Below the pieces are notes generated by a model. It did no database searches. It was not told the DNA's origin and was given only the letters and a program-made list of their open reading frames with translations. From the NCBI GenBank assembly GCA_004022145.1, contig RCNU01000009.1: a stretch of 64,000 nucleotides of DNA. One strand, given 5' to 3'. Shown piece after piece: positions 26,526-51,878 of the stretch. The position numbers were made by a program, and so were the translations under genes. Position 1 is the first letter of the stretch; each line of letters starts with the position of its first letter. The stretch is from Paecilomyces variotii (lineage: Eukaryota).

Positions 26526-28213
26526 TTAACCCTTGGCAGCACCCGCCTTGATGAGCAGGATATCGCCATCCTCCACTACGTAGTCCTTGCCCTTGGTCAT
26601 GACCTTACCAGCGGCCTTGACCGCGGCTTCGTCACCGTACTCCTTCAGAGTCTCAAAGTTGAAGACAATAGCCTGGATGAAAGTCTTCTCGAAATCTGCA
26701 GAACAGAGCATCAGTATCTACGATTAATCACAACTTATGATGGATGTGCTTACCAGTGTGGATAACACCAGCGGCCTGAGGAGCCTTGGTGCCCTTGCGG
26801 ATAGTCCACTGTCGGACTTCGTCCGCACCGCAGGTGAAGAAGCTGCCCAGGTTCAGAACCTGGCGCATGGTCACAATGACCTTGGGCAGGGCCGATTTGG
26901 TGCCCAGCTTCTTGCACTCCTCCTCGGCCTCAGCATCGTTCTCAAAGCGGGTCAATCGCTCCTCGAAAGAGACGGACAGCGGAATGACTGGGTCACCGGC
27001 AGAGTGCTCCTTGATCCACTCCGCGACCTTGGGAAGATACTTGTTCTTCTGGCGGATGTAGTCCCTCTCGCTGAGGTTGACCAGGTAGACGACGGGCTTA
27101 GCCGTGAGGAGGAACAGAGGGTTGATCACCTCGACCTAATCGCGTCATGGTCAGCACATGCTGCGCGAAATGCAAATTGGCAACAAAATATAATGATCCA
27201 TTTGTGCTTGCACATATCAGGTAGGGTTTCTTCTCAATGTGACCTCAACGTGAGATGAAACGAGGCCACTCGACGAGCTGGGTTATATTATCGAGCTAAA
27301 GCTCTTATTCATCATAATAAAGCGCAGCAAAAAAAATAGACCAAAAAAAAGGTATTAACCACATACCTCCTTGGGCGTCCAGTCACCCTTGCGGACATCC
27401 TTGCCGTCCTTGAGCCACTGGAGGACCTTAGCCACGGTGGCCTCCTCTTCCTTCAGCTTCTTCATTTCCAAACTCTGACCACCACGCTTCGTCTGCTTCT
27501 GCAGGGACTCGAGGGCCTTCTCGACGAACTCGATATCCTTGATGCGCAGCTCCTCGCTGATGATGGTCAGATCACGGATGGGATCGACGTCACCCTCGAC
27601 GTGGATGATCTCTGCATCATCGAAACATCGCACCACCTGGAAGATGGCATCGACGGCACGGATGTGCGACAGGAAAGCGTTTCCCAGACCAGCACCGGTC
27701 GAAGCACCACGCGTCAGACCGGCGATATCGTAGACTGTCAGGTTGGCAGGCACCTGCGACTTGGGCTTATAGTGCTCGCACAGCCAGTCGAAGCGGGAAT
27801 CAGGGACAATGACACGCGCTTCTTCTGGGTCGATGGTGGCATACGGGAAGTTAGCCGGGTTACCCAGCGAACACTTGGTGATCGCCTGGAAGAGCGTCGA
27901 CTTGCCAACGTTGGCGAGACCGACCTGGAGTCGAGAACATTATTATTAGTTTCAGTGCTGCGCGACGAATTCACATTGTGGAAGTGTCGTGAAGGAAGAA
28001 AGAAAAGACAAGAAAAGATAAAGAAGAAAAAAAAAAAAAGAGAAGAAATTGTGTGTGCGTGGGAGCGGTGGGAATAAATAAGTAAAGGGGAGAGAGAGGC
28101 TAGAGAGAAAAAAATTTAGTTCGGCAAGTCTCACATACGATACCGCTCTTCAGGTTGTTCCCCGGACGACCGAGAAGCACCTTTTCTTCCTTCACGGCCT
28201 TCTTGGGACCCAT
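26526..28213 (-). CDS. OLA1: Obg-like ATPase 1 (OLA1/YchF), 4 exons
   Basis: GRPGNNLKSGI-VGLANVGKST, NFPYATIDP, DIAGL, GLGNAFLSHIRAVD, APQAAGVIHT, KDYVVEDGDI. Confidence 0.96.
27213..27320 (-). ncRNA. snR69: Box C/D snoRNA snR69 homolog in OLA1 intron 2; predicted guide for 25S Cm2948 (yeast numbering)
   Basis: C box ATGATGA 27315-27309; D box CTGA 27220-27217; AACCCAGCTC (27284-27275) is complementary to 25S GAGCUGGGUU and precedes a D'-like TCGA, so the +5 rule lands on the C. Confidence 0.82.
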
Positions 28214-49330: not shown

Positions 49331-49757
49331 GTTTACGACAAAGGGAAAACTGGCATGAGAATGGTATGACAATGTATTCATTGATCTAGCTAGCGAGAAT
49401 TATGGACCACCTGATAGGTGCTGCAGTTTATCTCGTCGACGAGATGTGGGGTATCTTATGATCTTCCAATTGTTAGTCAAGGATTCAAACTCAAGATGAG
49501 TAGTACAGCAAAGTGGAAACAAATTCGAATCAGTTCTCCAAGATGAATAAGATTCTTCAACGTGTAACTCAGTAAGAACACAGCGAATAAAGAGTTCATC
49601 ACGAAAGAATATGCAACGAGAATGGAACAAAACTTACAATCTAGGAGGAAAACGTCCGCTATTGCAAGGTAAGTTCCTAGCGAGACCGAAAATGTCAGCG
49701 ACATGACTGAATAAGCGATCCTCTGCAGGATGATGAAAGATATAAAGGCATATCATC

Positions 49758-49920
49758 TATCTCAGGCTTTGCGCCCATCTGTTAGCATGCGCACTTCCTT
49801 CTGTTCAGTACTGGAATACGACATACCTCATTAAATCAGAATTTTCAGTGTATACGTTCATACCCGGAACACTGTTGGTGTATCCGGTTCAAACAGTGTG
49901 AATAGTGTTCATCATTTGAA
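49758..49920 (-). ncRNA. snR51: Box C/D snoRNA snR51 homolog (25S Um2729, 18S Am100), split by an internal intron 49826-49767
   Basis: C box ATGATGA 49915-49909; TATTCACACTG before D' TTGA is complementary to 25S CAGUGUGAAUA; after splicing, CTGATTTAATGAG|C-CTGA is complementary to 18S GCUCAUUAAAUCAG. Confidence 0.88.
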
Positions 49921-50045
49921 AGATGATAGCCATATACTTCGGGGAATCAGGGCTCCTTGTGCATATGAGACAGTACCTAGTGACATTAAGGTCAGTTCGA
50001 GTTCGAATCATACAATGATATCAAAAATGCGAGTCATGTTGATAA

Positions 50046-50180
50046 TCAATCAGGTGACGAGTTCTCAACAAGCATTTCGCCTCCCCAGCACCCGCAAAGT
50101 TTGTACGCTTTGCTTTTCATGGATGAGGGCAGATGAATCCGTTCTGTCCGCCCGTTCGTTCATGGCTTCTTCATGAAGGG
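50046..50180 (-). ncRNA. snR70: Box C/D snoRNA snR70 homolog (18S Cm1639)
   Basis: C box ATGAAGA 50174-50168; ACGGGCGG before D' CAGA is complementary to 18S CCGCCCGU; extra element GTACAAA pairs with the adjacent UUUGUAC; D box CTGA 50053-50050. Confidence 0.85.
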
Positions 50181-50295
50181 GTCGCGTGGTGAGGTGTGGG
50201 AATGTTGATAGATAGAGAATAAAAGTACCTATTAGCGTCGACTGTTAGTTACTGCGAAATCAATGGCATGGGACAAATGATATCGTTGTAGAGAT

Positions 50296-50393
50296 TGGAT
50301 CAGACAAGGCTGAAACTTGATTTATTGACAGGTTCCACATGGATCTTAAGATTGAGGAATGCCTTTCGCATGTCATATGAGTCATCACAAAAG
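50296..50393 (-). ncRNA. snR41: Box C/D snoRNA snR41 homolog (18S Gm1126)
   Basis: C box GTGATGA 50388-50382; 14-nt AAGTTTCAGCCTTG is complementary to 18S CAAGGCUGAAACUU and precedes D box CTGA 50303-50300; position upstream of snR70 and snR51 matches the yeast cluster order. Confidence 0.88.
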
Positions 50394-50555
50394 GGGGGCG
50401 GTGAGAATGAACAGCGAGGAAAAGTAAACGTACCTTTTACAAATTGTATGATGAGCAAGATGGAGTACGCGATAGGAATATTATTCTAAGCCTAGTTTCG
50501 AGGTATTAGCAGCTGTCATACCAGATAACGACGCAACCACAATTGTATGACGGAA

Positions 50556-50639
50556 GGCATCAGAGTAATTCTAGAGTTTTTTTTTGAAGTCCTTCATGGT
50601 CATAGGATTTTGTGGATAAAAAATTTTTCATCACTTGAG
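50556..50639 (-). ncRNA. Box C/D snoRNA, U45/SNORD45-like (18S A equivalent to human Am159)
   Basis: C box GTGATGA 50634-50628; 12-nt CTCTAGAATTAC is complementary to 18S GUAAUUCUAGAG and precedes D box CTGA 50563-50560. Confidence 0.82.
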
Positions 50640-51878
50640 AAGAGTATATAAAATAGAACGTATGGACTTACCATTAATGAATAACAGGTAGTGTCACAGC
50701 TATGCAGCTAGTAGGTGAGAATATCAAATATAAAAGGTCATGACGCCTTCCAGGAAGGGCGACATCAGCCCTGCCGTGCCTGCGGCAGATATTTTGCTGA
50801 GAAGAATTAGTGTGGGATGGGAACAAAAATTTATAGACGCGTAGGCAGCGCTACGGAGCGCGCTTGTTACCTTAAGCGAAAGTTGAGCCCCACTTAGGTA
50901 GGTCCGATGCATTGACCAATGCGAACGAGGATCTCCAGGTTCATGAATTGAACAACTGCTGGTTCATCTGTGTTGATTTCCTCCACCTCCAAATACTACA
51001 TATATCTACTCTAAGGAGAGGCTCCCTCAAACTTAAATGAAGAATTTCGTAGTATGAGTGTCCGGAAAGGATCCATTTATCACGCACCACTGGAAAGAAT
51101 CAGCCAGCGGACGATGATCGCATGGATATTACTATCTCTAGGAAGTACTTCTATCAAATTGTATTCTTTCAGGATGGGTAGTCGGTCATACGCCTAATAT
51201 ACTTCTTGAATCCTGAAGTCGTTGGGGAAGTTATTATTAGAAGCAGACTCACAGGAGCGCTAGATGAGAGTGTCTCAAAACGTCCCCATCACGTTAGAGA
51301 TATTTGCAAGAAATTCCGTATACAAAGTTCAATTTCAAGGGAATGATTAAGCCTAGCGCCATCCTGAAGATTCGCGCACTGAATGGGTTGGACATATGAG
51401 TACTCGGATTCACAAGTGCATAATGACCTGTAAGTCAAAAGTCCCGCCGGTAACTATGTATGTACCTTGAGGAATTGACACTCTGCTTCGCTCGAATACA
51501 CTTCACTTGTACGGGGTGCTCGTTGCTTTCTCATCCTTTTACTGCAGCTAACTAATGACCATAGACGAGCTGCCTTCGTTACTTCCTGCTTTTATACTGG
51601 CGAAGCTCGCGTCCCTCATATAGACGTCATGGTTTCCCGGGCTGACTTTTACGACACACACTCTAAGGGCTTTTCTGCGTCAATTTGACGTCGCTTTACA
51701 GTGTCGCAGGTCCCCCTGATTGCATAATCCATACGCGGCCTGGGATGTTAAATATCTCAAGCTGTCTCCTTTATCGCTCAAATCAAAACTGACCGGTATT
51801 GTTGCAATAGCATAATTTAGCCCACCAATGAATCATATATTATCCAATATTACCCCATTTCGTCCGATATAATCCAAT

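Follow-up and report, generated by a model that had tools for sequence, protein, structure and literature searches.

On the minus strand of a 64,000-nucleotide (nt) stretch of Paecilomyces variotii DNA (contig RCNU01000009.1 of assembly GCA_004022145.1), the whole of which is called the window here, there is a small nucleolar RNA (snoRNA) of the box C/D class that belongs to the snR51 family of a Eurotiales-like fungus. An initial annotation had placed this snoRNA in an intron of a host gene and had proposed that a second, spliceosomal intron is nested inside it and separates its 18S guide from box D. All features given below are on the minus strand. The element opens with the 5' strand of a terminal stem, GGCTATCATCT (49921-49931), which pairs with 49758-49747 and closes the precursor fold. 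Next come box C, ATGATGA (49909-49915), which was aligned with box C of both the Rfam snR51 and snR67 models, and the D' guide, TATTCACACTGT (49893-49904), which agrees with the Rfam snR51 consensus guide in 12 of 12 bases and has a putative target of the 25S U2729 type. The TTGA that follows it (49889-49892) is the likely box D'-like motif, as judged by the +5 rule and the conserved guide, and its T55, G56 and A57 were invariant in the alignment; divergent D' boxes of snR51 have been reported (PMC3116282). An ATGAACG (49855-49861) is likewise a putative box C'-like motif, with A85, T86, G87, A88, C90 and G91 invariant in a 5-sequence alignment. Downstream of it, a second guide-like element, ACACTGAAAATT (49840-49851), which matches the 3' end of Rfam snR67, stands immediately 5' of a CTGA, hereafter the near CTGA (CUGA in the RNA). 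This near CTGA (49839-49836) is readable as a cryptic box D and is at the same time the opening of the first 13 nt of the guide for 18S A100, CTGATTTAATGAG (49839-49827), a sequence that occurs only once in the window. The RNA may carry three guides, two of which share four bases.

Directly after the 13-nt guide there is the inner spliceosomal intron of 60 nt (49826-49767), with the donor GTATGT at 49826-49821, a GCTAAC branch site at 49786-49781 and an AAG acceptor at 49769-49767. After the AAG come the last guide base, C 49766, and the far box D, CTGA 49765-49762, which were recognized from the sequence and from the relatives described below. The initial annotation had given the same motifs and its positions were found to be right to the base. 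The intron fits the U2 type in having a GT donor, a CTRAY branch site and a branch A that is 15 nt from the AAG. In the unspliced genomic sequence 61 nt stand between the 13-nt guide and box D, and only upon excision of 49826-49767 does the guide, extended by one C, abut the CTGA. This gives the 14-nt guide directly before box D that had been proposed, and it is the arrangement found in intronless relatives. Counted upstream from the far box D, the guide's fifth base then pairs with A100 of yeast 18S ribosomal RNA (rRNA), as that sequence is printed in the DNAzyme arms of PMC3938493, and the earlier claim that the +5 rule leads to Am100 holds on that sequence. A second, competing acceptor, the distal TAG at 49757-49759, would join 49827 to 49756, and its use removes 49826-49757 (70 nt) including box D. 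The computed lengths of the RNA are 103 nt when spliced at AAG, 88 nt when cut at the near CUGA and 163 nt when unspliced. When shuffled sequences were searched with at most one mismatch, a match to the 13-mer was found in 10 of 100 shuffles, so that chance is not excluded by the 13-mer alone and the case rests on context. A chance origin of the match was accordingly set aside on the strength of this context and not of window statistics alone.

The 3' strand of the terminal stem (AGATGATA, T, GCC; 49747-49758), which was recognized from pairing and fold, begins 3 nt past the far CTGA. The stem consists of 8+3 base pairs between 49931-49921 and 49758-49747, has a duplex energy of -17.6 kcal/mol and encloses box C and the far CTGA. 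It closes the minimum-energy fold of 49940-49740 (-53.8 kcal/mol, z -3.05) and is also closed in the computed folds of both splice products; whichever acceptor is used, the 3' strand survives, since the AG lost with the distal splice is replaced by the AG at the end of exon 1. When the genomic sequence was aligned with the Rfam snR51 model (RF01214) over 49919-49824, box C, the D' guide and a 12-nt 3' guide agreed with the consensus and box D was missing. The score was 28.5 bits, which is below the gathering threshold of 44. Among relatives of this locus, the gathering score was passed by all six intronless sequences tested (46.3-86.1 bits) and by one of nine that bear the intron. Together with the listing of the Neurospora crassa homologue as a 76-nt 'exon-encoded' snoRNA, this bears out the expectation in the initial annotation that standard snoRNA finders would miss or truncate such an RNA; the split architecture defeats them.

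Relatives were collected from metagenome contigs by a pattern in which the D' guide is followed at a distance of 35-65 nt by the A100 guide, and which gave at least 117 loci, and no 18S was found in these loci. The counts that follow hold among the matches listed, from which 22 duplicates were dropped to leave 96 distinct sequences including the window, 7 of them too short to judge. In 76 of the 89 judged sequences there is an insert right after AATGAG and in 13 there is none. The inserts are 46-68 nt long with a median of 54, their donor is GT in 75 and GC in 1, and 75 of 76 have a CTRAY branch site. In all 76 the insert ends in AG (CAG in 32, AAG in 26 and TAG in 18), which is followed by exactly one base (C in 60, G in 11 and A in 5) and then by CTGA, replaced once by CCGA. 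The insert sequences have diverged and what is conserved in them is the splice signals and not structure. The single CCGA is that of L112, the sole relative with such a far box D, which nevertheless has an intact A100 guide and an intact second guide. In the 13 intronless relatives the A100 guide runs into box D as AATGA-GC-CTGA, which is what splicing at AAG would give, in 8, as AATGA-CT-CTGA, the yeast type, in 4 and as AATGA-GA-CTGA in 1. One of the 8 with GC, L063 (841-939 of its own contig, minus strand), has the second guide and the stem motif of the window and its sequence is that of the AAG-spliced product; it is a natural case of precise intron loss.

The terminal stem covaries. When the 5' flank of each of 88 loci was paired with the flank of its own far box D, the mean energy was -10.59 kcal/mol, a value reached in none of 2000 permutations, compared to -6.19 (standard deviation 0.25) for permuted partners. 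The stem sequences vary between loci while the pairing persists, and in 73 of the 88 loci the own partner was better than the mean of ten other loci. Of 75 relatives, 63 have a YAG|GTA at 38-62 nt upstream of their box C, compared to 123 of 2340 background windows, and the order Afu_455, snR51, Afu_294 recurs among the relatives.

RNA evidence was taken from assembled contigs of the runs X1, X5, X6 and X7 at a minimum likeness lowered to 90, with junction sides below 30 to be treated with caution in metagenomes. Every RNA joint was of the GT..AG kind on the minus strand. The joint 49827|49766 that had been predicted for the inner intron (60 nt) was found in one contig of X6 with a depth of 54.4 and a shorter side of 23, and in view of this short side and the lowered likeness it counts as weak evidence. 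The commonest junction was instead 49827|49756 (49826>49757, 70 nt), in which the distal TAG is used and box D is lost; it was present in X1 (depth 59.9, side 108), X5 (depth 25.7, side 119) and X6 (depth 81.1, side 28). In X6 both inner joints belong to one bubble between the shared contigs 49978-49827 and 49758-49649, of which they form one arm each, at 54.4 and 81.1 or about 40:60. The proximal joint was not seen in X1 or X5, where its absence is no evidence against its use as contigs lose rarer variants. The depth inside the insert (49776-49822) was zero in X1, X5 and X6, though contigs join across it. X7, which is labelled RNA, gave a 4548-nt contig that covers the whole stretch without any splicing and differs from it by 20 substitutions and 6 gaps; the inner intron has three of these substitutions and the exonic parts of the snoRNA have none. 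This contig was read as the DNA of a relative or as precursor and was set aside as evidence of splicing.

The same contigs show how the inner intron stands to the outer one. The snoRNA is in outer intron III (49976-49677), which has the donor GTACTG at 49976-49971, a branch-like GCTGAC at 49699-49694 and the acceptor TAG at 49679-49677. It is the last of three abutting introns that make up a composite outer intron (49677-50433) without an intervening exon, the others being intron I (50433-50229), which contains Afu_455, and intron II (50228-49977). In the sequence, TAG|GTAC is found at both borders, 50229/50228 and 49977/49976. The joint 50433>49677 (X1 and X6) skips all three introns (757 nt) and the joint 50433>49977 (X1, X5 and X6) skips introns I and II (457 nt), while RNA contigs with loose ends at 50234 fit the excision of intron I alone. 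The acceptor of intron III is thus used in the 757-nt joint and its donor position adjoins the end of the 457-nt joint. Both joints fit the host intron of the initial annotation, the donor of which was not seen in use by itself; no RNA contig showed the lone joint 49976>49677. Since the joint 50433>49677 spans both inner joints, the inner intron is wholly inside the outer region that is removed. Molecules from which the inner intron is gone and in which outer intron III is retained were found in X1 (record 3) and X5 (record 7, 965 nt, reaching into downstream exons), and the reverse state, with the inner intron kept and the outer one gone, was not found among the contigs of X1, X5 and X6. These contigs are consistent with the order of splicing, inner intron first, that had been put forward, though contigs cannot prove an order; that the order is obligatory, as the initial annotation had it, is an inference.

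From these data we consider it highly probable that a 60-nt U2-type intron splits snR51 between its 3' guide and box D, and that splicing at AAG, formation of the small nucleolar ribonucleoprotein (snoRNP) and trimming yield a guide RNA of about 100 nt. The claim that an intron lies within the snoRNA is strengthened by splice signals at a fixed position in 76 of 76 relatives, by intronless relatives, by covarying stems and by RNA joints. A probable course of events is that splicing at AAG takes out the inner intron from an otherwise intact precursor, which would join CUGAUUUAAUGAG to C-CUGA and restore what intronless snR51 has, namely a guide of 14 nt in which the fifth base upstream of box D pairs with 18S A100. 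By pairing 49931-49921 with 49758-49747, the external stem would then unite box C and the far box D for snoRNP assembly, and the outer intron or the retained precursor would be trimmed to an RNA of about 100 nt. The mature RNA would guide methylation at the equivalents of 18S A100, by its 3' guide, and of 26S U2729, by its D' guide. The AAG-spliced form is presumably the one that is assembled into the snoRNP, and A100 is presumably methylated in this organism. An intron in a snoRNA in an intron is an unusual architecture. Here the splice sets the distance from guide to box D and hence the nucleotide that is methylated.

Several points weigh against this interpretation. The predicted junction is in one of three RNA runs, in one contig with a shorter side of 23 nt, and the junction common to all three runs uses the distal TAG, which deletes box D. 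Contigs cannot reveal the ends or the abundance of a mature RNA. When the near CUGA's genomic flank was taken as the rival stem partner, the flank of the far box D was the better one in no more than 58 of 88 loci. The scan pattern demanded both guides, which makes lineages that lack the A100 guide invisible, and the loci are unlabelled and related, so that their counts are not independent events. The pairing with the target was tested on the printed yeast 18S and not on the rRNA of this organism. The N. crassa homologue, finally, has been reported as a 76-nt exon-encoded snoRNA with a D' target only (PMC2780460).

In the long transcripts that were assembled, use of the acceptor by which box D is lost is at least as frequent as use of AAG. 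A surplus of distal-spliced long contigs would be expected if the AAG-spliced precursors are consumed by snoRNP processing while those without box D persist as host transcripts. The distal joint could also have a function of its own, which would extend the nested-intron interpretation rather than replace it. Selection would then act on the choice between two acceptors 10 nt apart, the proximal AAG, which is weak, and the distal YAG, which is strong: the proximal splice keeps box D and arms the 18S-A100 guide, and the distal splice deletes box D and keeps the stem, upon which the CUGA within the A100 guide is the only box D left and arms the overlapping guide ACACUGAAAAUU, of the 25S U2724 type. 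The presence of both joints in one X6 bubble (54.4 compared to 81.1), and of the distal joint in three of three RNA runs, is consistent with such a switch. The second guide, ACACTGAAAATT, together with the near CTGA is identical in 16 of 16 bases to the 3' end of the Rfam snR67 consensus, that is its 3' guide and box D. The 10-mer ACTGAAAATT (with one AAAAAT variant), which was not part of the search pattern, is in 41 of 88 distinct relatives and is preceded by AC in 40. Loci with the second guide are enriched for the proximal acceptor AAG (24 of 40, compared to 2 of 36 without it) and for a distal NAG at most 14 nt past box D (39 of 40, compared to 11 of 36). All 24 AAG loci have a distal YAG, and the distal product would keep the stem (-12.70 compared to -12.82 kcal/mol, reached in 0 of 1000 permutations; permuted -8.54). 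Moreover, for the snR51 of Onygenales and of part of the Dothideomycetes a D-box target at 25S-2724 has been predicted (Canzler et al. 2018, PMC5824354), and in yeast A100 is only 68% methylated, the methylation being limited by the level of snR51 (PMC3938493).

Several observations speak against a selected switch. The conserved terminal stem has the distal AG as its first base pair, and this by itself accounts for the conservation of the AG. The intronless L063 retains both this AG and the second guide though it is unable to splice there, and 5 of 8 loci with a proximal TAG have merely a weak AAG distally. The associations may descend from one ancestor and the statistics ignore phylogeny. The distal-spliced molecules are found in long host contigs (X5 record 7, 965 nt), which fits dead-end by-products, and AAG is not exceptional here, as it is likewise the acceptor of the intron of this host gene that holds Afu_294 (49465-49463). 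Furthermore, Aspergillus fumigatus has a separate snoRNA, Afu-380, which is predicted for Um2701 (PMC2377427). We hold a selected switch to be unlikely. If it is true, the proportion of two methylation specificities would be governed by alternative splicing, through which A100, only partly methylated in yeast, could be adjusted. The competing acceptor that removes box D and the second, conserved guide-like element that uses the CUGA inside the A100 guide are possibly new. Beyond the papers cited here, literature searches gave no paper on a competing acceptor, on isoforms of this snoRNA or on a dual reading of box D; the supplements of Luo et al. 2013 (PMC3596301), with alignments and EST (expressed sequence tag) comparisons in figures S5-S14, may bear on the junctions.

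The near CUGA is also at the centre of a simpler alternative, namely that the working RNA is of about 88 nt, ends just past 49836 and carries the 25S guides only. In that case the region from 49826 to 49757 or 49767 would be an ordinary intron of the host gene, and the far CUGA and the complementarity to A100 would be relics. This would agree with N. crassa CD6, which was described as 76 nt, exon-encoded and with the D' target only (Liu et al. 2009, PMC2780460), and with the snoStrip family CD_6, for which the D-box target was assigned via the near CUGA (PMC5824354); both are Pezizomycotina homologues that are annotated as ending at the near CUGA, without the A100 guide or the far box D. In the alignment with the Rfam snR67 model the near CUGA is included as well, and long RNA contigs carry 49978-49827 in the manner of an exon. 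Against this reading, AG, one base and CUGA are kept in 76 of 76 relatives despite diverged intron sequences, and the stems around the far box D covary. The intronless relatives have the guide, two bases and then CUGA, and the A. fumigatus cDNA (complementary DNA) Afu-277 is 100 nt with a predicted 18S-Am97 target (PMC2377427), which requires a box D behind the guide. A truncated snoRNA is for us very improbable. That no splicing is needed, as the 60-nt expansion would fold away and unite guide and box D in an RNA of about 163 nt, is suggested by the precursor fold (-53.8 kcal/mol, z -3.05), in which the terminal stem is closed and the insert forms local hairpins. It has next to no probability in view of three RNA runs that have contigs joined across the insert and zero depth within it, the conservation of splice signals rather than of structure, and the 100 nt of Afu-277 (PMC2377427).

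The host gene is non-coding, and only three open reading frames of at least 50 amino acids touch 49400-50800 (75, 53 and 62 amino acids). The order of units in it is snR41/Afu_455, a middle unit, snR51 and Afu_294. Afu_455, a snoRNA of the snR41 type, is at 50298-50392 in intron I (Rfam, 85.1 bits), and in the relatives the Afu_455 and snR41 matches overlap. One X6 contig has the upstream exon and the 5' part of intron I, ends exactly at the Rfam 3' end of Afu_455 (50298) and continues with 24 untemplated A's (T's on the plus strand); it looks like an oligoadenylated, 5'-extended snoRNA precursor. In the middle intron (49977-50228) there are a box-like ATGAAGA near 50174-50168 and a CTGA at 50053-50050. 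A snR70 homologue would be expected there from the published cluster order, and no Rfam family matched this intron at E values up to 10. Afu_294, a snoRNA of the SNORD55/39 type, is at 49527-49606 (Rfam, 76.1 bits) in the next intron, 49637-49463. The joint 49637>49463 of this intron, which skips 175 nt and ends at the AAG acceptor mentioned above, was present in X1, X5 and X6. Further upstream, the intron 50671-50492 is confirmed by the joint 50671>50492 (180 nt) in X1, X5 and X6. It holds a box C/D-like RNA at 50558-50638 (GTGATGA ... CTGA), with a weak match to the snR51 model (25.7 bits), and this is probably the 'intron A' snoRNA of Luo et al. 2013. About 22 kb from the cluster there is the snoRNA Afu_304 (27213-27319, minus strand; 85.2 bits), and this layout mirrors that of A. 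fumigatus chromosome 1, on which Afu1g09800 contains Afu-304 and the cluster is flanked by Afu1g09740 and Afu1g09760.

The architecture of an intron within an intronic snR51 is already known. Luo et al. 2013 (PLoS One, PMC3596301) described in Euascomycetes an extra 'intron B' inside the intronic snR51, between the antisense element and box D, and called the arrangement nested introns. Their cluster III (snR41-snR70-snR51) has an intron-intron-intron structure in Euascomycetes, and in their ESTs introns I, I+II or I+II+III were removed and the later ones never alone, which is the pattern shown by the RNA joints of the window. Intron B is the same object as the inner intron described here, with abutting outer introns that lack exons between them, in species that include A. 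fumigatus, A. flavus, A. terreus, A. nidulans and Neosartorya fischeri. In the text of that paper as considered here there is no intron B junction, mature RNA, competing acceptor or overlapping second guide; these may be contained in its supplementary figures S5-S14. From A. fumigatus, Jöchl et al. 2008 (PMC2377427) had cloned the counterpart, Afu-277 (AM921925), as 4 clones of 100 nt, located between Afu-455 and Afu-294, with the predicted targets 26S-Um2706, 18S-Am97 and 5.8S-Cm47. It has the same place in the cluster as the snoRNA of the window, and Afu-304 is likewise nearby on A. fumigatus chromosome 1. In the account of Afu-277 in that paper it is labelled intergenic and splicing is unmentioned. 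The snoRNA of the window is, judged by position, the counterpart of Afu-277, and the orthology of the two rests on position and predicted targets.

In Saccharomyces cerevisiae, snR51 guides methylation at 18S Am100 and 25S U2729 (Buchhaupt et al. 2014, PMC3938493). The yeast snR51 (RF01214) shares with the window box C, the D' guide, the 12-nt A100 guide, a spacing of 2 nt before box D, which in the window is reached after splicing, and the clustering with snR41. It differs in that its gene is intronless and the RNA is made from an unspliced polycistron, whereas the genomic sequence of the window falls below the gathering score of the family. The U3 gene of S. cerevisiae carries a spliceosomal intron. 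In the yeast U3 genes, too, such an intron interrupts a box C/D snoRNA and its removal is needed for a functional RNA (PMC5832005), but these genes are independent transcription units that are not in a host intron, and U3 is not a guide in which the splice sets the distance from guide to box D. Stwintrons, the nested U2 introns of Pezizomycotina, have in common with the window that an intron lies in an intron and that the order of removal matters (PMC8469720). In a stwintron the inner intron breaks a splice signal of the outer one, whereas the inner intron of the window, at a distance of 150 nt from the donor and of 68 nt from the branch-like site of the outer intron, breaks the snoRNA and leaves the outer signals intact, and on this ground it is not a stwintron. 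To what is in print this study adds the comparative count, with 76 of 76 inserts that keep the splice frame and 13 intronless relatives among the matches listed, the statistics of stem covariation and the RNA evidence for a competing acceptor. If functional, this acceptor and the overlapping second guide would be a new way of regulating the choice of snoRNA targets, and they are for now a lead.

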